Made by a program: the position numbers and the translations under genes. A DNA stretch of 64,000 bases, from NCBI GenBank assembly GCA_051362555.1, contig CM120643.1, positions 28,648,848-28,712,847 on the forward strand, in the 5' to 3' direction. Positions 1,352-61,117 of this stretch are shown piece by piece (within the stretch, counting starts at the first letter, position 1; each line of letters starts with the position of its first letter). Under the pieces are notes generated by a model that saw only the letters and a list, made by a program, of their open reading frames with translations, was not told where the DNA came from and did not search any database. The DNA comes from Lingula anatina (lineage: Eukaryota; Animalia; Brachiopoda).

Positions 1352-4300
1352 AATTTTACTTTACATTATCAACATCAAATCTTCGACCCTAGGTCAACAG
1401 AGCTGCAGTTTGGAGAAATGGAAATCAAGAAGCATGTTTCTTCCAAGGAAGTCAACGTCGACAATAGCACTGACGTGGACACCGACGAAGTGGACATCGA
1501 GACAGATGAAGTCCAGCGTGTTAACGGAGGTATACTGACCAGCGTCTCCGGGCACGTGCAGGTGTTTGACAGACCAGCTGAGCAGGTAGATTTTATTTGA
1601 TGTAGCAGCACTATAGATATGAAGAACCGTACTAAATTAACCAAATATGTCAATTGAATGTTTGTGAAAAATGTCCTGTAGCTACTGATAGTTCTGACAA
1701 ATTTTATGAAGCCTCAATCTACAAAGTACAGTCAAACGTACGTTTGAAGCATCATTTATTACTATTTGTCTTGGGCTCGCTCCTCGGGTTAAAAAGAGAT
1801 CATGGAAATTTTCATCTGATGGATATTTTACATGCAAACCACAGTATATTGTGCATTGAATTTTGCAGATAGATGAAATATAACAACATTGAACACAAAT
1901 CAAATGCTAGTCATGTTATAGGATATGCGCATATATTTAAAATTTAATATTGCATAGCGTTGGTAAAATTTAATATTAAAATCCCCTCAGGATGACACCA
2001 CAACCAACCCTGTGGAAGGGGGTAATGTTGATCTTGGGGCATATTTGACCTCTAACGTGACATTCACGTTGACCTTGCGCAAGCACGTAAAGCGTTCCGT
2101 CGAAGGCGTTCAAAGAATGGAAGCGGCAGCTAAGGCCCAATTCCAGAAAAGATCCTTGGTCGGACAGTATGACCAGGGTAAGTGAAGCTGTAAAATTCTT
2201 AATTCTGTCTCACTTCCTTATTTATACTTTTTGGGAGGAGGGGGGAGCGGCTGAAGGAAGGAGGGAATGCCTTTACAGCTAAGAAATTGGCTTTTTATTG
2301 TGAAAAAGCTGTTAGTGCTATATTCCCTTTCCTCATCTCTCGAAGAAAATGCAGTTCAGAGAAGATGGTGAAAAAACTGATTCCTGCATGCACTACTAAT
2401 AACTGGGTCTCTTGAAACATTTTTAAATTATTGTTTAAGATTTTAAAATAACTAATTTATGTTTCAATGTCATTCTACATATTGTCATGTACTGCACATT
2501 ATGATCCCTAATTGCAGTGTCTGGTGTTTACCAAAGATGGACTGTTTTGAGGAAAAAGTTCGACGGAGAGGATAAGTTAAGTCGAGCTGTGGCGAACTTC
2601 ATAAAGGATCCATCAGCTCTGTCAAAATGTATGTGTTATAGCGTATTTTTAACTTTTTTAAAGAACGATTTAGTTCCAAACACTGTTGAAATATCTGCCA
2701 AAGACTTTCTATATCAATATTTGTGGTTGAAAAATAGAATCACGGGCGTATCAAACGCTAATGCATATTTCAATTGGGTATAATTAAACATTATTTCATG
2801 TATATGATATGCAAATGGTTGAATATTGACTTTTGTACTCTGCTTGCTGTCTTGCCTGCACAGGTATCCCGTAAACTGCCATTGTGTACCGTACATGCAC
2901 CTACATATGTTCACCAGATTTTTTGTTGCAGTGGACGAAGTGAACGAAATTCTGTCGCTAGAAAATGAGCTTGGGATGCCACACAACACTGCAACCTCTG
3001 CAGCCGCCAACAAACCGCCTTTGGTTAAGCAACTGCTACAAGCAACAAAAGAGGTTTGACTTTAATAATATTCTATTGAGCATGTAACAGTTTAAAAAGT
3101 ATGTATAACCAAAACCAAATTTTACTGTATGGTCTTCAATATCAAGAAAACTGACAAGAAATGTAGAAGATTACATTTTGGACTACTGTGTGATCTGTAT
3201 TTACATACATGTGTACATTACCTTTTTTTGTTATCGTTTTTCAAAATAGTTTCCCTGCCTTATTAAAAAAGACTGCTTGTCATTTCTGTTTGGGCACCTT
3301 TACTTACGTTTTCATTTCTGAAAGTGTTTGAATATGTGTTTTACAAATGGACATTGTATACTTGTATAGATATGTAAATTTAAGGGTTGCTGAGATTTAT
3401 GTATAACGTAAAATTAATGCATTTAATATACATTAACTTTGATGCACTAAATGTTAAGTCACCAAACGTATTATATCCTGTGCTTTAAGATTGTTACCAA
3501 GTGCTCGACACATTGGGAAATTTGCAAAGATATATTGGATCTTTACATCACTGCAGGCGGCAAAGAAGTCGAAAAGGTAACGTACGGTAAAATACAAAGT
3601 GCCATTTAGACCCTTTTGTTGTAATTCTCATCTGCTTAAGTATATTATAATGTATTACATGAATTGTGCAAACTCTGAAAATGTACAAACGTAATTTTAC
3701 GATATTGCACAAAAAGACATTTAACTCAGCGGTTATACGTAACATTTATTACACTTGTGGCTTTGAGAAGGATGACAGACGTAACATTAACGCCATAAAT
3801 GTAACATTTTGGATACAATTTTTACAACGTGCAGCACACTGTCATGTTTTGTCTTTCCTAGACGCTGTCAGATCTGGTCCAGTCTCACCCCCTTTCTGTC
3901 GACCAAAAACAGGAACTGGTTCAGAAGATGTCCTTTATTGCCAAACCTACAAACCACATCCTGACCACAGTTAAGACACTCTGGAACACGGTGTCCTCTC
4001 AAGGTGATCCATCCCAAAGTCACGTCATACTTACCCTCGGCTCCCTCGCCTCGAAGGAAACTACCACCACTGGTTTCCGATCAGAATTGGTGGATCTTCT
4101 TCGACGCCATCTCCAATCAGGCGACAAAAATAACAACACGGAGCAAATCAGTGACGCTCTCGAGGCTATAGGTAACTTTGGTGACAACAGACTTACACCG
4201 GATGTATTGACAATTGCTAAAAAGACGGGACAACTGGAAGAGATAGAGATAGGCTGTATCCACGCTCTGAGAAGAAACTTCCACGTTGAGTCAGTTCAAA

Positions 4301-5221
4301 AATGGCTAGTTGATTTGCTGACCCGTCCAACATCTAGCTGTGAATTACTTGAAGGTGCCGTAGTGACCATCAAAGATGAACTTGCCTACAGAAAGATACT
4401 GGATACCAAAAATAAGGCATGGCCCAATGCAGGTCACACAGACGTAGATAGAATTCTTCTCAATGCACTTCTCATGGCAGATTTAAGATACGAGTGCGCA
4501 TTTTCAGATATAAAGCAGTATTTCCGACTTAAAGGTGTACCGATTGGTAAACACATTGAAATTTACGAGACGGTGAATTCCACGCGCACCAAGAGAAGAG
4601 TTGACCATGTAAGCTGCAGTTCTTGGGGCACCTACGGCTCACGCTATTCAGAATTGTTAAGTTCAAGTCAGTTCACAAATGATAACTCCTTGTTCCCAAA
4701 CAACAAGCACTGCCTTTCCCACATCAGTTACGGTCCTTCGAAAGTTAACGTCTATGTCAAGTCCGGTGTCTTTGCTGGTAAAGATGAAGTTCGAAGACAC
4801 TGTAAAGTGTACGGCAAGGCAGTAGCTAAACTCAAAGTCTTCTCCAAAAGCTTCACACTCGCAACCGCAGAAGTATATCGTGCCAAGACTAGCAGCAGTA
4901 GGACTAAGGTTTATCTTCATGTCTACTGGAAGACTGTGGTGAACACATACCAGTCCGGCCCACTGTACAAAAACTACCCCATTTACAGACCATCGCCAAA
5001 AACCATCACCTTATTCCAGATTCATGTACTTGTCGCCAAGATCTCTGTAACCATTACCTTGGCTCCAAGCGTGGACTTCAATGTAAGAGCAGGGTTCTGT
5101 TCTCGTTCAACAGATCCTTGTTCCCACTGTCTGACGATGACACTCAAAGCAGGTCTTCGTATTTCTGGTGGTGCTTCAGCTAGTTTGCTTGTAAGTACCA
5201 GTATATAACCTGTATAAACAC

Positions 5222-22700: not shown

Positions 22701-25700
22701 AAAATAGGATTTTAAATACTGACACAACATACAGGACTATGGTTACCTCAAAAATAAGTGATCTTTTTTTCTTTTTCAGACAGATTTATTTACAACCAGC
22801 ACCTGTACATCAGGGAATTCACGTTGATTTTTAGAAAAATAATACCAATTACAATCCTAGAAATATACAAAAGCTTATCAAAATTTGAATGAGTTTGTCA
22901 TTCCTGGGGGCAAACAGGGGCATTTTCTTAACACAGTCTCAGTCTTTGCCAGTGTGATTGAACTGCTGAGCATGTCTTTCAATATTAGTTCCATTGTTAG
23001 TGCCCGATCACCAAGTCTCTGAATTAATTAATGAGTTCGCAGCACCACTGTAGTTGTTCAGAAAGTATATACATCAGATTTTGGTTAAGTATTTAACAAA
23101 AGATATAATTAGTAAATAATATAAACCTAAGTATGAAGTTAAAAAATAAACAATGTTAGGAATACCAACATAAACAAAAGAGAGCTTTTCTGATATGTGT
23201 GAATACAAACAATTTTCTAGCTAACTTATATATTGTTTTTTCATTAATAAATGAAACAAAATGAAACAGAACAAAACAGGAGAATACAAAATTTCACAAT
23301 AACATTAAAATGTTGCAGATACATCTTAAATAATTATAATTCCTAAAGGGTAATAAACAACCACAAGTTTTTGTAAGGACTCTATTAATCTTACTACACA
23401 ATGCAGAATCTAATCTATGACACCTACAAGTTGATACATGCCTAAAACAGATCTGTTTAGATAGACTGTCCTCTATGCTGAATACCATATTTGTATTTGC
23501 TAATTTTTATAAAATTAGCTATTTCAGGAGATACTACTATAATAGTTTATAACACCACTGTCAGGGTGACAGTTTCAAATTGGATATTTTCATTAAACCA
23601 TTTTCCCTTGCAATTCAATTTGAAAGTCAAAATATGTTTTTTCTAAAGCTTTAGCTCAGCCTTTACATCCAAACTATGTAAAACAGCCCATTAATGGCAT
23701 TTATGAAAAACTGTCCATATTTGGTATTCATGTAAAAAAGCCCAAATATGGTTTTTATATAAAACTACCCAAATATGGTATTCATGTAAATTTGTTAATA
23801 ATAAAAATAAAGCTACTAACAGTAGAGAGGCATTTTAATCTCTACTGACTCTAGAGCTAAGGGGGATATATCAAGCATTGGAAGTCATGCTCTGAGCCAA
23901 ATGTTCAGGGTCAACTACTGTCACATTTAGAGCTAAATTTTTCTGCGACCCTGCGTCCTGACCGCTACGGAAGTCAAAGACAGATATAGGCGTCCCTGGC
24001 GTGCAGGGTACAGAAGGAGATGGCGGCACAGTGAACTGATGGGACCGTTTAGGCCAGGTGGAAATTGAAAGTGAGGCAGTGAGAGAGTCGGAGTTCTTAC
24101 GCTGGGTTTTGGAGGAGGCGGAGTTCTTCAGGTACTGCTTTGGCTTCTTCCCGCTGTAGTCTCGTATGTTGGGGTCAGCACCTGATGGGAAGAATCAAAT
24201 ATATTAAAATACTGCTGTGATAATTTAATACAAAACTTGAAAATAATAAATTACAACTCAATGACATGTATGTTTTTTGTTTTTCTTCATTAGCTGTGTG
24301 TTTATTTACTTTTTTAAAATATCTTATTTGCCAGCAATTGGAAAGGAAAAGAAGATTATGTCAGCTACTTGTGTTAACTCTTTACAAATGAATCTGCCAC
24401 TGTTGAATATACTGTATTGTTTATACCTTGTATTTAAGGTATAAACTAAACTTAGGATCTTATTAGCTCATGCAGAATATATATTTTTACTTTATCTGAC
24501 AGCAATTCTGTTGGTATTTGTACACATGAAACAACTTATTACTTGTTGTCACTTACAACAATTAAAAAATTATGTACCACTTATCATACCACTGTACTAA
24601 CAGCTCCAGTTCCACCTACCATGACACTGTACTAACAGCTCCAGTTCCACCTACCATGACACTGTACTAACAGTTCCAGTTCTACCTACCATGACACTGT
24701 ACTAACAGTTCCAGTTCTGCCTACCATGACACTGTACTAACAGCTCCAGATCCACCCACCATGACTCTGTACTAACAGTTCCAGTTCTGCCTACCATGAC
24801 ACTGTACTGACAGTTCCAGTTCTGCCTTCCATGACACTGTACTGACAGTTCCAGTTCTACCTACCATAACACTGTACTAACAGTTCCAGTTCTACCTACC
24901 ATGACACTGTACTAACAGTTCCAGTTCTACCTACCATGACACTGTACTAACAGTTCCAACCTACCATTACACTGTACTAACAAATCCAAACTACCATTAC
25001 ACTGTACTAACAGTTCCAGTTCTACCTACCATGCCACTGTACTAACAGTTCCAGTTCTACCTACCATGACACTGTACTAACAGTTCCAGTTCTGCCTACC
25101 ATGACACTGTACTAACAGTTCCAACCTACCATTACACTGTACTAACAGTTCCAGTTCTACCTACAATTACACTGTACTAACAGTTCCAGTTCTACCTACC
25201 ATGACACTGTACTTAAAGTTCCAGTTCTGCCTACCATGACACTGTACTTAAAGTTCCAGTTCTGCCTACCATAACACTGTACTAACAGTTCCAGTTCTGC
25301 CTACCATAACACTGTACTAACAGTTCCAGTTCTACCTACCATAACACTATACTAACAGTTCCAGTTCTACCTACCATGACACTGTTCTAACAGTTCCAGT
25401 TCTACCTACCATAACACTGTACTGACAGTTCCAGTTCTACCTACCATAACACTGTACTAACAGTTCCACTATGGCTTCATGTCCATGTAGTGCTGCTAGA
25501 TGGAGAGGTGTGTAACCCTGAAAGGACCAAAAAATTAAGTTATTTAAAAAGCATTTCTAAGCTCACACTGAGATGATATACTTTGGCTAAAGCAAAATAA
25601 AACTACTTTCCCTTTTTTTTTGGTCTCTTAAAGATATAATTATGGTCTTTTAATGTACCATAATTATATCTTTAAGAGGATTATCAAAATATTAAGCAGT

Positions 25701-27449
25701 CCAGTAAAATGATGAAACAAGCCACTGTATTTATTACAAATTTTATGGTAGCTACTTACCCCCTATTGTGTCAATAAAAATCAGCAACATGAAAGAGAAG
25801 GAAGTGCTTCATTAATTTAGTAATGTGTGTGTGTGTGTGTGTGCGTGTGCGTGTGTACTTATGGCATACAACAAGTCTAACTGCAAAGTCAGCTTTAATA
25901 ATAAACTTGTATAAAACATCATTCCTTATAATCAACATATCTCAGAAAAATGATGTTTTTTTAAACTCATGAAGCCTACTATGCACAACTCTTGGATGAA
26001 ACATGTTATCATTTTGTTTAGTTAGAAGTATTAAGCAATATGATATGAGAGTAACTTAAGGAAATATTTTAACAAGATTTGTTTTTAAAAAATGTTCTAC
26101 TTACGTGCTGCATGTTTCATAAAAAAGAACAAATAAAGAGTCATCATGAAATATGTCCATAACAGGTATATGAAATGACTTCTCTGTTGGTAATTTACCA
26201 TTACAAATGCATCAAATACAGAGAAGAATTTTGTCAGCTGTGTTATGTTATAAGAATAAAGTAATTTGTTTCAACCAACAGCTAATATTGGCAGCTAATA
26301 GTACCTGCAATATTTCAAACACAGTATTTATGGAATTTAAAGTCAAGCTATATTGCTTCTAAGAATAATTATCCAAATAATATTATACACTTTTTGCTAA
26401 TGTTTGCCCCAGTTGTTTTAGCTATCATCATCCAGACATGTAAATGGGTAAACAAATTATAGATCAACAATTTCTACTCCTTTTGGGCATGTGCGCACGC
26501 ACACACACACACACATACACACACACATACACACACACACATACTACTTACTGATCTTTGGTTCACATTCACTCCAGGTGTTCCCGCAATCATCTTCACA
26601 GTGTCTGAGCTGCCATGTTTTGCTGCCCAATGTAAAGCAGTCTGGAACAATAAGAAATATAAAATTGGACACCATATATATTGGCAGATGTGAGATTGAA
26701 ATCACTAACATATTGGGGATGATCTAACTTTTGCAAATCTTCAAAGGATATAAATCATTTGGGGAATTCTAGATAAGTTAATCATACTGAAATTGATACA
26801 CATCTTTTCACTTCTCCTTTTTAATCCCCCTCCCCCCCCCCCCCCCCCCCCCCCCGGATCCCTCTCAAATTATGATGCCCATATAACATGGTTCACCACA
26901 AATGTAAATATTTCAACAAGAAAAACTCTGAACAAGAAGAAAATTCTTACCATCTAATTTCAGATAATTGTGCGAGAGATGACAGGAATGCAATGAAAAG
27001 TAGAGGTGAAACATTCACATTAGAACAGACTCAACAGACAACAAATATCTAATGATTTAAAGGTCCAAGACCATATACTATGTTTACATGTTAAAATTTT
27101 AACAAGTAAAAGATCATGTGTCTTAATTTTACACATTCACTTATTAATTTTTTTTTTTTTTTGCATTTCTAAACCATAATCATTCAAATATAAAACAAAC
27201 AAAAGCCTTTCTTGCACAAGAACATTTAGTATATTATCAAATTTAACAAATTAAACATCAACGCTATTATATTCATGAAAAATATGTTGCTATATAGTTA
27301 TAGTTATGTGATAAGAATATCCACTTAAAATCATAAATATTTGAGATTTGTGGCAGGGACACTTACCCCCTATTATGACATCCATGACAATGTTCAGGAG
27401 AGAGTAAGTAATAACAAAAACTAAATTAGTCACATTATAAAACAGTAAA

Positions 27450-27482
<33 letters not shown>

Positions 27483-28324
27483 GCTGCAACACAGAACGTA
27501 TATACAAAAACTCTAAAATGAGCCTGCTTTGACTGCTTAATATATAACGTTTTCACTATGTCAATCATCAAGTTTTAATAGTAAGTATTGTGTTATCTTT
27601 TAACTTTTAAAGGTTAAAAATATTACACATTGGCCTTTACACCTCAACAAGGATGATGCCTGGTTTACTTATTTATTTATTTACTAAAAGCACCCATGAA
27701 AATTATTTCTGAATCCATAAGTATTCCAAATCAAAGTACTTACGTTTGTGAAATCCTGCAAAACAAAAATTAAAATTGATAAGAAACAGTAATTCACCAA
27801 AAAAGGTAATTCTATATCTATTATTAGGAATAACCATAACTGAGGATTTCTTATTAGTAACTAAGTAAAAAAAAATTGCTTGTAAATAATCTGATATGGT
27901 GTTTGTAAAATGGATAAAAGTGAATACTTATCAATATGTGTTACGACTGTAACCTTAAGCAGTACAGCACATTCTTGGCATAGGCAAAGTATACATCATG
28001 TAGACCATAGCTTACAATAAATGATAAATAAATGCACACAAGGTTGACAAAATATATGTATAATGCATAACTATCCTTAATGCAACATCTGCGTGTACAT
28101 AGCTCTCAGTGGATAAATCACTTGTTATAGCTATATACTGTCTCTCTTGACTCCATGCAGCAACTGTCACTGCATGCATCTGTTATGACCAACTTTACAC
28201 AGTTTACAGGACAATTATTTCCTCTGAACATAACATTTTCTTCTTACTTCCTCCAAAACATAGCATTACATATCCCGCAATTAATTACTGAGAGTTCAGT
28301 TATTTGAGATATTTTACTTCAAGA

Positions 28325-28363
<39 letters not shown>

Positions 28364-28379
28364 TGTGTGTGTGTGTGTA

Positions 28380-28425
<46 letters not shown>

Positions 28426-31400
28426 CACTCACTGGTTTCTTGGCCAGTTGAGGGTTGGTCAGTAGTATCTTGGCCATGGGATGATAGTCACACTTGGAGG
28501 ACAGCATCATCCACTCTCTCTCCACATCTGTCAGCTGGAATGTTATAAGAAATATCAGTTTTCATTCCCAGTTTCCACAAGATTTAGACATTATAATAAT
28601 CCCATTTTCCACATTTTCTTTACTCTCAATATATCTCTACTGATCAGCTATTAAAATATACATCATTTATTGTTTCCTTAGTTTTTTCTTGTCAGATTGA
28701 ATTTTTTTTCTATAATTTTTTTCTACATTGCTAAGTTTGAAAATCATAGCAAATTGTTAGGACTTTTTCCTAATTTGTAAATCATTTAATTTCAGCTCAC
28801 TTTCTATATGTTTCAATACAAGCCTGCTAAATGTCCTCTGTGCTTCAGCAAGAATCTGCATAAATGCCACCCACCCCCCACACCCCCAATGTGCTACACA
28901 GAACAACAAATTAATCAGATTCAGCAGCTACCGTTTTTATGCAATTTGTTTATCTCTGAATGCTGATATGTTGTGTTCAGAAAACAGGTAACATTTTGTG
29001 TTCTGTCTCCCTGATTGCAAATGTCACATCATCTGGTCATCACATATTTTATTTCCTGTCAGCTCCTTTTTTTCTCAATAAAGTTCTTCATTGTATTTTG
29101 GCAGAAAAGCGCGACTGTTCTCAGCATAGTGATAGTCACAACAAGTGTGCTTACTTACAAGTCTGAGGGAGTAGTGTAAAAAAAACTTCACTTATAGACC
29201 ATGTGGGAAAAGCAAATCAAAGAATGTCTGCATTCTGTTAATAGCAATATTACCTGCACATATGTCTTAAATGTCTGGGACAGTAAAAAATGCTCAAAAA
29301 TTATTTTTATATTCAGACCATAAAAATCCTTCTATTTTAATACAGTATATACCAGTGGAAGTCCACTTAAACAATTTGTTACCAAACCTTATTTAACAGT
29401 AAGGAATATACTGTCAGATATATATTAATATTTCCTTGCAGCAGATTAGATATTACTTACTATATCTTAAAGGTAGGTACATTTTCTGGGTCATAAATAT
29501 GAATTATGAGGCAATTTTCCAAGCAATAAAATCCTAGATTGAACTAGAGTTCAGAAGCAGTGATGTAGTAATATATATGATATATATGGTGCACAATTAC
29601 GATAAGACAAGTATTGTGTGGTGTGTTAGAAGACAGGCCTGTACTTACAGTGACAGATGCCGTGGAGGAATCATCATCATCATGCGCAGCCTGCAATCAC
29701 AAGAAAAGATCGTTAAAATTTAAAACCAAAACAATGAAAACCCCATATCATTTTGGAAAAAAAAAACCTTACCAAACTCAGGATAACAAATTATATTTTT
29801 TATGAATATTTCCTATCAAGACTATACCATAGTACCTTACTGAAAGCTTTGGCGAGTCTCTTATCCAAGTTTGTTAAAGACGGAACACGCATGATAACAT
29901 TGTCTTCAGTAGCCATATTTCACCAGCAGCAGACGCCCTTTTCCATCATATAACAGAACATAAACCACGCTTCAGATCCTTTATCTTCCTACGCAAAACA
30001 TGAAGGTTACACGAGGAGGGGAAAAACCACAATCCTTGTACTAAAGTTGGCAACCAGCTTGCACCCACCCCACTCAGAGCAACATCAAAAACCAAACTGT
30101 TATTCCACAACACGTAATCTGCTCCTTTCAGGCAGCCGAGTATTAAATTGCTAAATTATGCACAACCGTTTGGACATAGGTTATTTATGGCTGTACTGTT
30201 AGAGATAATGTCACTTAGATAATGCCCAATGCAATAAAAAAGGGCCCAGGTAAACACATTCTTTGTACTGTTATCAATTTCAATTTCAGCATGGAAGGGA
30301 GAAAAAGAAGAAATTCCAGACGAGATTTCTTACCATGATAGAACAGATGTTTTTATGCAGGAATCTCAGCATGTACGTTTTGTGCAATCTGCTCTTTGCT
30401 ACTCCAGACATTTTTTTTTTATTTGGGAGGGGGGGGGGGGGGGCAAAGAAAACATACATAACATTGCCTCAGCAATCTTACTTTTATCAATAATTTATAA
30501 GACCTTTGTAAAAACAAGGTACATCTTACAGTGTGTGTGTAAATAGGAGTTTTTTAGCAAGAATTTTCAACAATAATATCATTTTTATGTATCAACATGA
30601 CTTCATCAAACATATTCAAGTTACATGGATAAAATAACAACCTCTTAACTGCATGCCAATTCCAAAATCAGGCATATCAACCTTTGTGATCTTTGCCCTA
30701 TCAACTCTCTCTGACATGAGAGTCATCAATCATCTTGACCTGTAAACTATTAATCCTCCGTGACCTGTCAGTACTTGATGGGGAAGACAGCAGAACAGGT
30801 ATTTTACCTGCACAGGTGTTATTTTGCCAAAACAACAGTTGATTGTGCAGAGGGGGGGGGGGAGGGGAGGGGGTAATTTGGTCACTTTTTAGCAAAATAA
30901 CTCAAATTTAATCAAATTAATAAATGTTTTTGCCAAATCATAAAAAGGTATGAAAAATTTCTACATTTTCTAAATATTTGTGAAGAAACACTGTAATACT
31001 ATTACACATCAACAGCTTTTCACTAATCTTTTCAATCCAATCTATTAATTACATCAGACTTTTTCTTACAGTCAACTATTTATTCACAATCAATTACTGC
31101 ACTGAATTCAATGTATACAGTTAAATTATGTCAGGTGACCGTTTCCTCATCTAAAAAAGAAACAAAAGAAAACTTCTGCCTATTATCACTTATCTTCATC
31201 AACTAAACAACCTACCTTAGGTTTAGGATCTCTTTTCCTAAGTTGTACTCTTTGCAGTTCTGTCTCAGACTGAATCTTGTTAAGATGTTTGGCTCTCTCC
31301 TTTACGCTCATCACTTCTTTTTCCTCTGTGACCTCCCCTGCCTTGTTAGGGCCCTGGGAAGATGGAAGAATATGTTGGTTATTGTGTAGTAATTTATGTA

Positions 31401-38000: not shown

Positions 38001-41000
38001 TAGACAAGAGTACCGCTCTATCTATGGGCCATACACAGTGATCGGGTGAAAGTACGTGTATACCTTTGGTCGCAATTACCGACACTCACACATCATACAT
38101 TATGGTAACTTTAAATAGATCGTCGGGAGAAGATAACAGAAGGCCTAGCGACGAACAGACAACTTCCGGTCAAAATTGACAGAATTCCATGAAATTCGAA
38201 CTTTCAGGAGTTCTGAGCACCTCCTTTTCATGAATTTCGGCCAGAACGATCTTTTCCCAAATTTAATTATTTTTTACTGTTCGAAATTCATGGCACATTA
38301 CCGTATATTTAAGAATCAATGATATATCATCATTATTATTCTTCACATTATTTTCATCATCATAATAGTAATATCAACATTACCCCAGTAATCTTTCCAA
38401 TAGATAATCATTTTAGTGCTGCTGCTGCTTCCAGTGATCATTACATGAACCAAATTTGGCACTAAATTATAACTTAGAAAGACATTTTTGCATGCCTTGA
38501 ATACCTACAATAAACCTTCCAGCAGTCAAATTTTATCAGGTGGATTTCAGAGGGGAAAAAAAGTTTATGCGTCATCTTTTAGAGGTGGACATGAAAATGC
38601 AGATAATTTAAAGTAATATAGATAACTTACAGAAGTCATGTTCTGACTGATAAAAATCCATATAAACAATGTCAAGACTAAACATTACTAGTAAATGCCT
38701 CCAAGTTTTTACTTCCTTTTTTCTATTATTTTGACAACTGTCAATCAAATGCAGAAAATTCTCATAACGAAAAATTCAAAACTGCTATTTGTCATACTCA
38801 CCTTATAAATATTATACATTTTTGAAGGTATGTCTCCCATGATGCCAATGAATGCACTTTCCCAGCCACACAATAAATGTATATATAATCCTACAATCTC
38901 TAAATCCACAGAATAATCCTGGTTCTCAAAAAATCTCTTCACTCCCTTAAATGATCACAAAATGTGTTGACATCTGACACCATAAAAAAAAGGCAATGAT
39001 ACAATTTTTTCTCATAATCATCTGGTTTCTCACAAGTGGAAGTGATCTTGAGATGTCATCAATTTGCAGACTACAGACAAAAATAATGAAATCATGTACA
39101 TGTATACATTGAAGGAGAAATAAAAGATAATCTGGTGAAGTGTTGATGTTCTTCCACAGCATGTGTTAAAGGCAACAGCTGGGTACTAGAACTCTGCATA
39201 AGTCACAGTAATGTCACAGCTGTAAAATGTCACGCTGACACCATACCAATAATCTGTCACTGTGCCGATATGACAAAGTGGACAGCTAAGATGTCAGTGT
39301 CAAATGCCTGTGGCACGCTCTGGAGATTTTTTTAAGTTCAAGGTACCAAGTCCATCTCATTTGGTCACTATCAAATATTACAGCAGTTGGTGTGTGTGTC
39401 AAACAGTGACACTATGGGCAGTCAGAATAACACTGACAGCCTGTGATATTCACTTGGTCACTGTCAAGTATTACAGAAGTTTCTATTATCACTGCATATA
39501 TTGTGTCACCATATTCATATTATGAGGACATTCAAGACTGATGACATGAAGTCGGTAATTTTTAACCAAAGGATGTCAATTCAAGTATGTCCCCATATAC
39601 ATGACAAAAAAGTGACAAAACTTTTCTGAGGATGTGACAGTCACAACATCACTGACACATCAATAACAAGTCACAACCCCAGCATTATACAACAGCTGTA
39701 GTGTCACTAAATCAGCCTGTGAACAGTCAAGATAAGTTACGGTAATCTTGGTGGATGACACCAAATCCTGAAAGTATCTCCTGGACTTTGGTAGTTCATC
39801 AGTCATTGCTATGGGCCAGAGTAATGGCCACTATTGGCACCAAGGACACTGACCACTGGGCCCTGTCGGTACCATGAAATGGCCACCACTGTCAAACACT
39901 GTATGGTACTCGCAGATTCCAGGCTGAAAATACTGCCACCACCAATGTCCACTCAGTGTCACTGTGATGACAGGATATAAGAGATCCTAAACCTTTAACA
40001 ACCAGAAGAAAGTCAATACTATCATGGAATAACTATCCCTGCTAATGTCACTGCTGAATCTTTCACCCCACGCAGGATCTCAGAAAAAGTATCCTCTCAC
40101 TGGGTTCATGTGAACAGGAGTCCCAAGAAACTGCTGTCACTGGTGTCATGAAGTAAATGTCAGTGCAAATGTCAATACAATATCTTTCCCTCATGTCCTT
40201 AGAATAAAGCACCAGATTATAAGTCTACAAGTACCTGTATACCCAACTACCTTATAAACCAATACGTGAAGCCTTTATTATCTGTATATATCCAATTTGA
40301 TCAATGTATCAAATGTTTTGAATACATGCATTTTCTGTCCTATACGTGAAGAGTTATCTTTAAGTACTAGTATCTATATCCATATTTGATCCAGTGGAAC
40401 TATAATTAGATGTTCAACTACATGAAGAGTCTCCTTAAAATATCTTCATGCAGATCAAATCTGGACAACAGATCAAAAAGCTGATATTTTTTTCCACCCA
40501 AAATGTGAAAAGTCAACTTCACTGATGATACAATGAATGCTTCCATTCCCCTTTGTGTGAGACGGAATGTAGTACTATTATTTACAATTCTTTGATATCA
40601 AATACACAATAAAATGTCAATCCTTTGGTAACAAAATACATTTAACTTTCCAAGTGGCAGATTTGACACTTCTTAATGCTGAGCGTACACTCCCCAATGC
40701 ACTTGAATTCTTCTTTTGCTATCAAGTGGAGAGCTGCTACCTTTTGTGAAATTTTCCAACCATGAATGCTTCCACAAGTTTCCCTGTACAACCTGAAGGA
40801 AATTTTCTACACCACTTTACTCCAGGTAAATGTAAAATTGGATTTCCTTTAAAAAAGCCATCTGCTCGCTCAATTATTCTAATTTTACAACTGTTTTTTT
40901 TTAAATAAATGTCACAGTTTTCAAACCTGTCTTATCCACCCTGCATCTCAATCGTCATATTTTTCCATATGCAGACTGCTCACTTGTACCATGCCCAATG

Positions 41001-44000: not shown

Positions 44001-47000
44001 CATTTTTGACTGGCTTCCGGCAGAAAAAAATTACATAACCGTCAATGTAAACTTGCAGATTTGACCGTCTTCTGGAAGACCCAGAAGACGGCCTAAATTC
44101 GCCCCTGATAAACATACTATAAACATGTTACACAAAGAGAATATGTTTTTAAAGAACTTAAAACCACCGTTACATAGCTGTTTACATGGCTGTTTGATGA
44201 CATTGATAATTACGATTAATGACAATTACATAATATACCTTTAGGATACTTGAAATGAAAAGTCTTTTTAATGAAAAGAAAGAAAGAATTTGCTAAAGTT
44301 TTAGAAAATTTAGACTAATGATTAAATTAAATTTATTTTAAATGGCAAAAAACTACAGATTTACAGAAAAAGACTTAAGTTTTCAGTCTCAAACTTAAAC
44401 CAAACATTTTGCTATTTAGTCAAACTAGCCCATATGTTGACTTATTATTGAGAAAAGTCAGAAGAAGCCTTAGGAAACTCAGGGTGATATGTCAGGCTCA
44501 GTGAGCATGGAATGTGTGAAGGGCTATCTCTGGTTTGACAGTCCACTGCTGGGGAAAACAACTGCAGATCAAATTTCTTTTAAATGTCACTTCACAATGC
44601 AGGTGCCTCTCCACAGTACGGGACTAGCTGAGAGCAAACTGTAATTGAGATATTCCAAACATTTTTGCAGAACTGCCAGCTTTTATTATTTTTTTCCTAT
44701 TTCAAGCATGAAATCAAAGGTGCAATTTTTTTTACTGTAACTCCACAAAAAACTGGTGTTTTTTCATATAATCAAAAACAAAACATATTGAGGATAAAAT
44801 GTTGTTAAAAATAAAGAAATTTGTAATGCAAATGCTGGATTTTGTCTTTTTTTACAGTAAATACTGGTAAGCATTCCTAGTAAGTTACTATCAAGAATAA
44901 TATATGATTTAAATTCCAAGATAAACTACGAAACCCACTGTGGCACCTGATTGTTCTGGCTCACTGTTTAACTGGTCAGTGTGTCCTCACCATCTTCTAT
45001 TAAATAATCATAAGTTGATACTTTATTGTTATTTCTTTAATATGAGTAAATCTATTTAGCCTGAAATATTATAATGTTTAAATCATCTAAGTCCCTTCAC
45101 ATTTCATTCAAAAATTTTAGCATAATTTTTGGTAAAAGTGAAAAGTTTTGTATTAACCATTTTTGTTTCTAGAATCCACTTGCCAAGCATCCCACAAAGA
45201 TATAACCCAAGCCACCATGATTCTCATTTCTGCCACCAGATGTCACACTCTACCATCCTCTATCAAGACAGACAATCTCATCTAAACACATTTCCCACCA
45301 GAGGTAGCTCTCTTCAAGTCTTTATCAAGACAATCTCATCTCAGGTTTCCATTCAAAATAAAATGTCACATGAAGAAATTTGACATTCTTTTAAAAGAAT
45401 AACAGTCACTTTGACAGTAGTTCCAATACAAACATAAAGGCATATCAAATTTAAATAAACAATTCTGATGACGAAAATCTTTATTATTTATACCACTATC
45501 ATCATTATCATTATCACTAAAAATGTCATCTAAAAATTTACCGTAATCTGTGCCTCAAAACATCTCAAAATAATTTCAACAAAATCTGAAATCAAGCACA
45601 TTCAACTTACTTGTGCTTCTTCTGTTGTCTCTTTCTTTGGTCCCTCCTGAGCTTTCTCCACCACCTCCACTGACCTCTCAGGACTATTACGATATCCCTC
45701 CTGGAAACCTGCACGCCTGCCCTCTACAGGTACGTCTGGGCTTTGGCGATAAACATCCTCTGAGCCTCTCCTCGGAGCTTCCATCCCTCTATCAGGGCTC
45801 CGACGATATGGATCATTGTAGAGTCTTTTCGGCACTTGTCTGCCCCCGTCCTGCTCTTCAAACCCTCGCCTCTGAGGACTTTGTTGATACTGGTTGTCTT
45901 GGTAACTACCTCTCCTGGTCTGATCTGGGAGCGGCAGTTCAGCTGGACTGTGTCTGTACACCTCCTGGAAGTCATTCCTTGGCACCTGTCCGTAGGATTC
46001 CTGGAATCCCCCACTGCTGTTGCTGCCCCTCCTGTAGGGATCCTGGAACCCATTTCCTGGACTTTGCCGGTAGTCATCTTGGTAGGCTGCACTCCTGGGA
46101 CTTTCTCTGTACTGGTCCTGGTACCCAAGAGTCCCAGGTTCCTTGAAATCATCTCTAGGACTGTGACGGTAGGGTTCCTGGTAACCACCCCCACTGCTCC
46201 CCCTCCTGTACGGATCCTGGTACCCACTTCCTGGAACATCTCGGTAGTCGTCCTGATACCCTCTATCCATGGGTCTCTGGTTGTAGGGGGTGGGGTACAC
46301 ATTACTGAGAGGCTCTTGGTACTGGTTCCTGTACCCCCCTCCACTGCTGACAGGGAGATCTGGACTCTGTGTATGGGGGTAGGCCACCGAGGACTCAGCA
46401 TACATCCCTCTAGTAGGGTCTACACCGGGTGACATATAGGAATCATAAGCTGGAGGAATCAAGGGGGAGTATGGTGTCCCTGGGGCCCCGGGGGTGGTAG
46501 GGGTGGTGGGTGAGGCAGCCCCTCCATAGGGGTATGTTGATGATGATGGTGTTGACCCTGTGTGTGTAGGAGTGGACAACTGACCGGCAGCTGACCCTCC
46601 TTCCCTGTATTTCTTCTTTAAGACCAGAACTTTCTCTCCATTCTGAAACACAGGAATGTGTCAAGATAATGATGATACTGATGATAAATAAATAATAATG
46701 CTAATTATTATTATTATTATTATTATTATTATTTTTATTTTTTTTTTTTTATTAACACTTTTATCATTCAAACAACAATAACATTATAGATACCTAATTT
46801 ATCAAATTTTGATAGTACGAGGTGTTCAGTATCTTTAACAACAAATACTGTATTTAGCACCTTAATCTTAGTTTAATTTTGTCAAATGATTCTATCAACA
46901 AATATCCAGACATGATAACAGGGTCAAATATAATATTAGCACATCTGCTAAGTTTCATCATTTGAAATACATTCCCTGCTACTATAATAAAACATACAGG

Positions 47001-59254: not shown

Positions 59255-59617
59255 TTCAGCGGATTGCCTTATTTACCGTTAAATTATTAGTTTCGCATTA
59301 TAATTCAACCCTTGTTTTGTTTTGAGAACATTTTCATTGTAAAATTGTATGCACATGAAACTACTGTTGTCAAACATATATAGCTGTTTCAAGTTCATTT
59401 TTATATGTGCCGTTTACGTCAAGTGATATTTATCTAAACTAAAGTTAGAATAAAGACTAACTCTGTCAGTTGCGAAGGTGGAGAGATACAGTCGTTACAC
59501 CACATGCGTCTAAGTTTCAGTCATTTAACAGCAATCATGTGAGTGAACACTCTAATTCTGAAAGTGATTTCGGGCAATTGAACTTGTTTTGTATTCTTTG
59601 GACGTGTCAGAAGACCT
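59255..59617. promoter_or_regulatory. Probable bidirectional promoter between SOWAH and PDP
   Basis: Only 363 bp separate the divergent start codons. CRE-like TTACGTCA at 59414-59421; Inr-like TCAGTT at 59466. Confidence 0.6.
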
Positions 59618-61117
59618 ATGGCAGTTTTCATGAGGAGATTGCCACTTGGTCGATGGCTCTCACGTTGGACGAAGGACGAATTCTCCTCGGTTGCGATTTG
59701 TAGGTCAGGTAAACCTCCACAGCGTGAAAATAACCTGCGCAGGTATCGTTACTCGGGGATAGACTTCCCTAAGTTCAACAAACAGCGAGTGACGTCTATG
59801 TTAAGAGCCAGAGAACAGACTGTCCCTATTGAGAAAGGTTCCATTCTGTACTACGAGTCAAATTTCCTCCCCTCTAATGACCCCATAGAAGATCGGCATT
59901 CCGTGGCGCGCTGTCTCCAAACCGACGCCATGCTGTTTGGCGTTTTTGACGGCCACGCAGGAGACTCATGCGCCCAGATAATCAGCGAGAGGCTGTTCGA
60001 TTACATAGCAGTGTCTCTCATGCCTCCTGAAGTTTTGGATCAATTCTGCAAATCTTTTCTGAGCAGAGGGATAACGCTTGACCTGCTGCAGTGGTACTAC
60101 CACAAGAAAACTTCGCATTATGATGCATTGCTGGGTGTGCATAAAAACAACCTTCATCGTTTCGCAGTAGAAACTCTGTCCACCCTCGAGGATGAATTCT
60201 CCTTGGCGTCTGCCTTGGAAGGTGCATTTGTACGCTTAGATAATGATATATCTAGCATGGCAATGCCGAGTAACAATAATGGACTGATCAACTCACAGCT
60301 GTTAAATATAGCCCTAGCAGGCTCATGTGCTATAGTTGCCCATGTGAATGGACCACATTTGCACGTTGCCAATAGTGGGGACTGTAAGGCTATACTGGGA
60401 CGCATGAGTTCAGGCGGGAACATTAAATTTATTCCACTTTCAAATGATCACAGTGCAAATAACCCAAAGGAAGTGGAACGAATCAGGCGCGAACACCCCC
60501 CTAATGAGAATGTCATAAGGAACCAGAGGCTCATGGGAAATTTGGCTCCTCTGAGAGCTTTTGGCGATGTTTGTTATAAATGGCCAAGTAAAGAGTTGGC
60601 ATATGTGACAAAGCATGCCGGGAAGCTCAATAATCCGTATGCAGTGATGCTTTCAAACTACTATACACCGCCTTACTTGACAGCTAAACCAGAAGTGATA
60701 TCATACCGTCTGACTCCAGCAGATCGTTTTATGATCCTAGCGACAGATGGATTATGGGATATGTTGACCCCAGAAAAGGTCACACATCTTATTAGCGAAC
60801 ACATGATGGGGAAACAGACATGGACAAAATACGAAGCCGCAGGGACTTTGACTCTAGGAAAGATCAATTCAGATCTCCGCAAGAGAAGAGTTGGTCTGGA
60901 GTATAAACCTGAGGATATTAATGTCGCAACACATCTGCTGCGTCACGCTCTGGGAGGAAACAATGGCGAGAATGTCACCCATTCCAAGTTGTCTGCGTTT
61001 CTTTCTCTGCCGCCAGAATTGAGCAGGTCGTTCAGGGATGATATCACAATGATAATTGTGTTCTTTGATGATAACTATCTTAGGGATTATTCATCTGTCA
61101 GTGAGCCTTTCTATTGA
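59618..61117 (+). CDS. PDP1: Mitochondrial pyruvate dehydrogenase phosphatase catalytic subunit (PP2C/PPM family, PDP1/PDP2-like), intronless CDS, 499 aa
   Basis: Motifs LPSNDPIEDR, LFGVFDGHAG, LHVANSGDCKAILG, LAPLRAFGD, NYYTPPYLTAKPEV, FMILATDGLWD, NVATHLLRHALG, RDDIT. The Arg-rich N-terminus is consistent with a transit peptide. Confidence 0.96.
   Translation: MAVFMRRLPLGRWLSRWTKDEFSSVAICRSGKPPQRENNLRRYRYSGIDFPKFNKQRVTSMLRAREQTVPIEKGSILYYESNFLPSNDPIEDRHSVARCLQTDAMLFGVFDGHAGDSCAQIISERLFDYIAVSLMPPEVLDQFCKSFLSRGITLDLLQWYYHKKTSHYDALLGVHKNNLHRFAVETLSTLEDEFSLASALEGAFVRLDNDISSMAMPSNNNGLINSQLLNIALAGSCAIVAHVNGPHLHVANSGDCKAILGRMSSGGNIKFIPLSNDHSANNPKEVERIRREHPPNENVIRNQRLMGNLAPLRAFGDVCYKWPSKELAYVTKHAGKLNNPYAVMLSNYYTPPYLTAKPEVISYRLTPADRFMILATDGLWDMLTPEKVTHLISEHMMGKQTWTKYEAAGTLTLGKINSDLRKRRVGLEYKPEDINVATHLLRHALGGNNGENVTHSKLSAFLSLPPELSRSFRDDITMIIVFFDDNYLRDYSSVSEPFY

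Follow-up and report, generated by a model that had tools for sequence, protein, structure and literature searches.

Five microexons, four of them single codons, encode two ankyrin loops of a SOWAH gene in the brachiopod Lingula anatina

Neural SRRM3/4 (eMIC) microexons keep the reading frame, contribute a few codons to surface loops and are alternatively spliced, and they depend on an upstream UGC element as well as on the SRRM3/4 factor. In schistosome micro-exon genes, most of the coding sequence is divided among symmetric microexons that are skipped combinatorially. Both systems differ from the SOWAH gene of Lingula anatina described here, in which microexons account for 24 nt of coding sequence and encode eight residues that are part of a conserved domain. 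Skipping is tissue-dependent in the SRRM3/4 programme and combinatorial in the schistosome genes, whereas no skipping is listed for the Lingula SOWAH microexons in RNA runs whose tissues are unstated. Plants offer another point of comparison, since the accessible text of PMC8831610 describes conserved plant microexons of 1-15 nt that are widely misannotated, sometimes adjacent, and equipped with strong GTRAGT donors. These exons resemble the SOWAH microexons in their tiny size, their conservation, their omission from annotations and their strong donors, but they belong to other genes and another kingdom, and the adjacent pair shown in that text consists of exons of 5 and 12 nt rather than of consecutive single-codon exons (PMC8831610).

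The closest described counterpart is the sowah gene of Drosophila melanogaster (FBgn0036302), for which Tables S4 and S5 of PMC8042270 give four microexons tagged FlyBase. These exons (ME119, ME3, ME2 and ME19) are 12, 3, 3 and 6 nt long and lie in that order on the minus strand. All four appear in a sheet of 128 constitutively spliced microexons, for which PSI = 1 by definition; the fly data reside in these supplementary tables, and sowah is unnamed in the accessible main text (PMC8042270). The order of 12, 3 and 3 nt is the same as in the first loop of the Lingula protein, and the first 3-nt exon is a Gly codon in both species. In contrast, the second loop is encoded by one 6-nt exon (Asn-Gly) in the fly and by two 3-nt exons (His, Gly) in Lingula, and the introns between microexons measure about 1-3 kb in the fly and 242-677 nt in Lingula. 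The initial annotation of this locus had allowed that the arrangement might be new for Sowah, a notion that the FlyBase exons and the two tables overturn. A literature search for Sowah microexons, microexons in Lingula and tandem single-codon microexons, with supplements outside its reach, found no paper.

Also described are the Iroquois-Sowah block, which holds an intron-containing Sowah, and the replacement of SOWAH by a retrogene in tetrapods (Maeso et al., 2012, as cited in the accessible parts of PMC12311624 and PMC5803294). The Sowah of this block is a multi-exon gene, as is that of Lingula, which likely covers ~40 kb. Linkage to Iroquois genes marks Sowah in invertebrates; a search of the 64-kb Lingula window with three Iroquois homeobox motifs found none. 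Maeso and colleagues are also said to have discussed a conserved Sowah exon layout in 2012, possibly including its microexons. Already known, then, are the loop residues, which are present in the reference proteins of the species, and four of the five exons, which have an annotated counterpart in the fly. What is added here is a brachiopod whose second loop is split 3+3, as read counts support, together with a tally of the loops that have been lost from genome models.

The window, by which we mean the whole 64-kb stretch that was analysed, consists of AT-rich DNA with microsatellites. Judged by its sequence, the gene is SOWAH, as it encodes the ankyrin motifs TALHW and GYTPLH and its closest relatives carry that name. 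The exon that we call B has as its best match SOWAHC of L. anatina (RefSeq XP_013404060.1), with 100% identity over 30 amino acids, and the identity originally proposed for the gene is borne out by this match. Pfam Ank families are recognised on this best match (P0001) with E 1e-19. All three RefSeq proteins of the species (XP_013404059.1, XP_013404060.1 and XP_013404064.1) contain both DFTNGM and HG, and the protein encoded by exons A and B in these models is identical to that of the window. The models lie on a 21 kb contig, are without the N-terminal region (found at ~58-59 kb in the window) and differ in three tail residues. These tail differences and the absent N-terminus suggest that the window is likely another Lingula allele or assembly.

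The minus strand holds five AG-x-GTAAG units in the order, phase and positions given in the initial annotation. Exon A (28433..28534; 102 nt, phase 0) ends in LAKKP, matches residues 74-107 of P0010 at 100%, is bordered by CAG and GTGAGT and is entered through an RNA joint, 28534/29649, seen in four runs. It is followed by microexon 1 (27744..27755; 12 nt, DFTN), microexon 2 (27367..27369; 3 nt), whose Gly corresponds to the nearly invariant G85 of P0001, and microexon 3 (26951..26953; 3 nt), which encodes Met where most relatives have Tyr or Phe. Exon B (26552..26641; 90 nt, TALHW...NQRS) is marked out by RNA read depth as well as by its identity with L. anatina SOWAH. Downstream of it lie microexon 4 (26105..26107; 3 nt, His), microexon 5 (25760..25762; 3 nt), whose Gly corresponds to the nearly invariant G118 of P0001, and exon C (25445..25517; 73 nt), which begins with GYTPLH, is placed by its match to SOWAH protein and by its splice borders, and from which reads continue into exon D. 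Each microexon is placed by sequence, by read letters and by a unique parse. The acceptor of every microexon is YAG, the donor is GTAAGT in four cases and GTAAGA in one, and seven introns separate exon A from exon C.

When exons A, B and C are joined through the microexons, the product is free of stops and reads KP-DFTN-G-M-TALHW and NQRS-H-G-GYTPLH, which is the restoration of both ankyrin loops that had been predicted and that RNA reads now carry. All five microexons preserve the frame, and the large exons alone are likewise in frame, but without the eight loop residues. The five have the features of the microexon class, namely a length of 30 nt or less, AG and GT flanks, and presence in spliced mRNA. 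Between the large exons, which are 2,825 nt apart in all, the pattern YAG-NNN-GTAAG is present four times, whereas 5,000 single-base shuffles gave 0.076 on average and never more than 2; the rest of the 64 kb has one further instance when both strands are counted. Zones free of AG extend 42-74 nt upstream of the five microexon acceptors and 28-81 nt upstream of those of larger exons, and thus are not a special property of the microexons.

No contiguous copy of the 18-nt first-loop insert exists anywhere in the window, and both intervals between the large exons are free of the two 6-nt codon pairs, so the pieces must be separate exons. Furthermore, an exhaustive parse of the genome at each junction, allowing GT-AG or GC-AG borders and introns of at least 40 nt, returned a single solution for each, 12+3+3 and 3+3. 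Together with the missing contiguous copies, this search excludes one 18-nt exon or one 6-nt exon in place of the microexon sets.

The letters expected at the two junctions had been set beforehand as the check, and we compared them with raw RNA reads from eight of nine runs bearing the species label: X1, X2, X4 and X7 placed on exon B and its upstream intron, and four further runs (X3, X5, X6 and X8) placed on 25438-31400. Between 6 and 26% of each run was examined (~6% of X1, X2 and X4, and ~25% of X7). In the first four runs, read depth is limited to exon B, the reads are 95-100% alike to it, and the first mates of X1, X2 and X4 are all plus-strand, as expected for minus-strand RNA in a usual stranded library. 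Upstream of exon B, 167 of 168 partly placed reads (59, 38, 67 and 3 per run) share one common loose end with an agreement of 1, and its letters are those of the end of exon A followed by the three microexons (18 extra nt). Downstream, all 112 overrunning reads (29, 37, 42 and 4) likewise share one loose end, with agreements of 0.98, 0.99, 0.98 and 1, whose letters are those of the two microexons and the start of exon C (6 extra nt). Both loose ends are as predicted, and another 21 reads in X3 carry the full upstream form, again with an agreement of 1. We take this value to be the agreement of letters across the 30 letters shown.

In the four runs placed on 25438-31400, the ordinary joints 28534/29649 and 29689/31215 are called every time, and no direct joint between exons A and B or between exons B and C is among the 15 joints listed. 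Because positions 26487-26554 were masked as a repeat, two repeat joints were dropped, and three joints and 58 rows of loose ends fell outside the listing, this last result carries little weight for the second junction. In run X7, four reads have Tyr rather than His at microexon 4, three reads have a silent change in the 12-nt exon, and exon B differs from the window at three places; in this run, variation in the single-codon exons resembles that of ordinary coding sequence. More generally, many fixed exonic differences set X7 and X8 apart from the window, which suggests that these runs represent a divergent population or a cryptic species under the same label. A separate signal at 26224-26432, in the intron that directly follows exon B, consists of low depth on both strands with loose ends unlike the locus, and is likely due to a dispersed repeat that is transcribed elsewhere.

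Reads of this kind would also reveal omission of microexons. In a simulation, a single skipping read lowers the upstream agreement to 0.977-0.992 or opens a second row, and neither a second row nor a skipping form is seen at either end of exon B in X1, X2, X4 and X7. The downstream agreement of 0.98-0.99 leaves room in each run for roughly one read that skips microexon 5, or else for an allele or read errors. Forms without microexon 4, which would be expected to have a row of their own from three reads on, are not listed in these four runs. Microexon skipping is therefore at most about 3% in the runs examined, whose tissues are unstated, and inclusion looks constitutive, being at or near the 100% that characterises constitutive microexons. 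Given the unstated tissues and the 6-26% of each run that was examined, a rare cell type could skip. The proposal that up to 32 combinations of these exons tune the loops finds no counterpart in the runs, as they contain no skipping form or direct joint and two of the residues concerned are nearly invariant glycines; near-complete joint inclusion rules out such a set of 32 isoforms for the runs examined.

Taken together, these observations make it very likely that the five units are real SOWAH exons that are spliced in together and provide eight residues of two inter-repeat loops, in what is likely an ancient constitutive layout and not a switch. A sceptic might argue that the extra letters come from elsewhere, be it from longer exons in another allele or paralogue, from a faulty assembly, from RNA editing or from non-canonical splicing, and that the AG-NNN-GT units arose by chance. 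Pieces of 3 nt are beyond the placement of short reads, and indeed no read aligned directly on the four single-codon exons; moreover, the comparison covered the 64-kb window, outside which a second copy could lie in the genome. Nevertheless, the read letters match the five units in order with exactly one canonical parse per junction, the 3-nt pattern is ~50-fold over its shuffle expectation, and the reads are 95-100% alike to exon B. Since the accessible tables for the fly also show equal exon sizes for the first loop (PMC8042270), we find an origin outside the locus scarcely credible.

A different objection accepts the exons but holds that they are regulated: though mostly included, they would be left out, one by one or several together, in a particular tissue or stage, with consequences for loop length and binding partners. 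Preservation of the frame by all five microexons would permit this, and named models from wasps, aphids and a planthopper have gaps of exactly one, two or six residues that coincide with the microexon borders, with two Myzus isoforms differing by a single residue. The SOWAH gene also has other alternative exons, as indicated by joint 29689/29835 in X5 and X8. Aligners that miss 3-nt exons explain the gaps in genome models equally well, however, and the other evidence weighs against regulation: there is no skipping row in X1, X2, X4 and X7, there is no direct joint of large exons among the 15 listed even though ordinary joints nearby appear in each of the runs placed on 25438-31400, both loop glycines are nearly invariant, the first loop is complete in all 27 scorable proteins predicted from short contigs, and the fly exons are in the constitutive sheet of the accessible tables (PMC8042270). 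Regulated inclusion therefore seems unlikely to us. We also regard as improbable a more far-reaching version in which the chain would be shortened codon by codon in some cell type, thereby retuning or switching off the ankyrin binding loops of SOWAH. Consecutive single-codon exons would then work like a ratchet that advances step by step, comparable to recursive splicing with three bases retained each time, and would constitute an animal-wide and very old splicing device; insect isoform models with gaps of one or two residues hint at such shortening.

The introns of the chain are likely removed one at a time, with each tiny exon being recognised through its near-consensus donor once it has been joined to a neighbour. 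Such an order is expected because acceptor and donor factors would not fit on 3 nt together, and both the short introns (242-677 nt) and the AG-free zones fit stepwise removal. The introns, at least those of the first loop, probably already existed in a common ancestor of brachiopods and flies, to judge by the fly table and by gaps in related proteins. Selection for loop length and for the two glycines would have preserved such an old layout, given that loss of a Gly is predicted to damage the ankyrin turn and hence to be selected against. This locus reveals no new regulatory code, and most of its layout has already been recorded for the fly. However, two pairs of consecutive one-codon exons with near-unfailing, read-supported inclusion amount to a ready natural minigene, and the SOWAH chain lets one study what the spliceosome does with exons that are too small for exon definition, and the order in which it removes their introns.

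Ankyrin inter-repeat loops form beta-hairpin turns, and the microexon residues are predicted to sit in such loops. In an AlphaFold2 model built from 39 aligned proteins, residues 81-86 lie between helices 74-78 and 88-95, and residues 117-118 lie between helices 98-105 and 122-128, with pLDDT values of 96-98 in those blocks. Both segments would thus be non-helical. DSSP assigns zero strands of three or more residues to the model, and the beta-hairpin label is therefore drawn from established ankyrin knowledge and from alignment to ankyrin structures, not from the model. G85 (microexon 2) and G118 (microexon 5) are kept in at least 90% of the 39 aligned proteins, an alignment drawn mostly from proteins with full loops that speaks to residue conservation and not to loop frequency. 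A search of the PDB returned general ankyrin proteins, and the best 60 of its 429 matches include no entry under the name SOWAH.

To see how these loops fare in other species, we scored by eye 61 hand-picked SOWAH-like proteins, excluding two other Lingula isoforms; one source list comprised the best 120 of 2,282. Among the 28 proteins from short contigs, some of which may be intronless copies, 27 were scorable, each with a complete first loop and a complete second loop. The named genome models present a different picture. Of 33 such models, 28 were scorable for the first loop after removal of P0071 and P0090 (no motif) and of P0003, P0004 and P0005 (which start at exon B). The first loop is full in 14, is without all six residues in seven, without one in four and without two in two, and is replaced by unrelated residues in one. 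Defective first loops are thus found in 14/28 named genome models, as compared with 0/27 short-contig proteins. The second loop is full in 20 of 31 scorable named models, without its two residues in nine and aberrant in two. Insect models without one, two or all six first-loop residues include P0006, P0007, P0068, P0069 and P0092. In molluscs, wasps, aphids, a planthopper, a spider and a scorpion, the loop gaps coincide with the borders of microexons, which suggests that these animals have the same exon layout, and the loop motif and its length match fish and sea-anemone proteins as well. These gaps may be annotation misses or, in the insect isoform models, real skipping. The expectation that annotation would likely miss such exons is upheld for half of the scored named models, in which the damaged first ankyrin loop marks a systematic error, but it fails for L. 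anatina itself, where the residues are in all three RefSeq proteins.

The remainder of the gene was traced on the minus strand by RNA joints, by tblastn and by splice borders. Upstream of exon A, joints 28534/29649 and 29689/31215 together with splice borders define a 42-nt exon (29649..29690), which is preceded by a 138-nt exon with the motif SVKERAKHLNK (31216..31353; RNA joint, tblastn and splice borders). A predicted third coding exon (45605..46645) encodes GEKVLVLKKKY and then a low-complexity linker (tblastn and list of open reading frames). Two predicted N-terminal exons lie at about 59254-59132 and 58063-58004, where tblastn of P0024, P0002, P0043, P0046 and P0047 gives E values of 2e-8 to 9e-3. 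The N-termini of five relatives that bear the winged-helix family PF25877 match at 59254-59120 and 58063-58004, and Pfam finds no family on the 45-aa first piece alone. Downstream of exon C, exon D (24101..24181; 81 nt to its first donor) is placed by tblastn and splice borders, and its first letters are those of the loose ends at 25443. Predicted C-terminal exons follow at 21097-21038, about 20226-20026 and about 19394-19308, the last with an MMPPP motif (tblastn and splice borders). Because full-length relatives match exons near 59254-59120, 58063-58004, 46645 and 20226-19308, the gene likely spans ~40 kb of the window. The RefSeq models pass the donor at 24101 and stop near 23871, and conserved C-terminal motifs of SOWAH lie further on (~20226-19308), giving two possible 3' ends.

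Several further features concern alternative forms of this gene. A 35-nt tandem array of 25.5 copies (24590-25468) starts inside exon C and repeats the last bases of the exon and its donor, whose octamer has 12 exact copies in the array. Most reads splice at the first exon C donor, but nine in X3 and three in X6 appear to enter the array, and such read-through would bring an early stop. An exon at 29835-29930 (minus strand) joins the 42-nt exon in five reads of X5 and two of X8, matches the N-terminus of RefSeq isoform X3 and is likely an alternative first exon. Another possible first exon, at 38802-38840 (minus strand), matches residues 1-13 of RefSeq isoform X1 exactly and could give a SOWAH form without the N-terminal domain. 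Six reads of run X8 join the 42-nt exon three bases deeper in exon A (joint 28531/29649; 28531-28534 on the minus strand), perhaps at a tandem acceptor in the X8 allele.

Two other open reading frames of note lie on the plus strand of the window. A single open reading frame of 511 codons at 59582-61114 encodes a PP2C phosphatase domain (PF00481, E 7e-39), lies head to head with SOWAH within ~350 nt, and presumably resembles pyruvate dehydrogenase phosphatase. A 448-codon open reading frame at 3862-5205 has a weak match to Vitellogenin_N (PF01347, E 1e-5).
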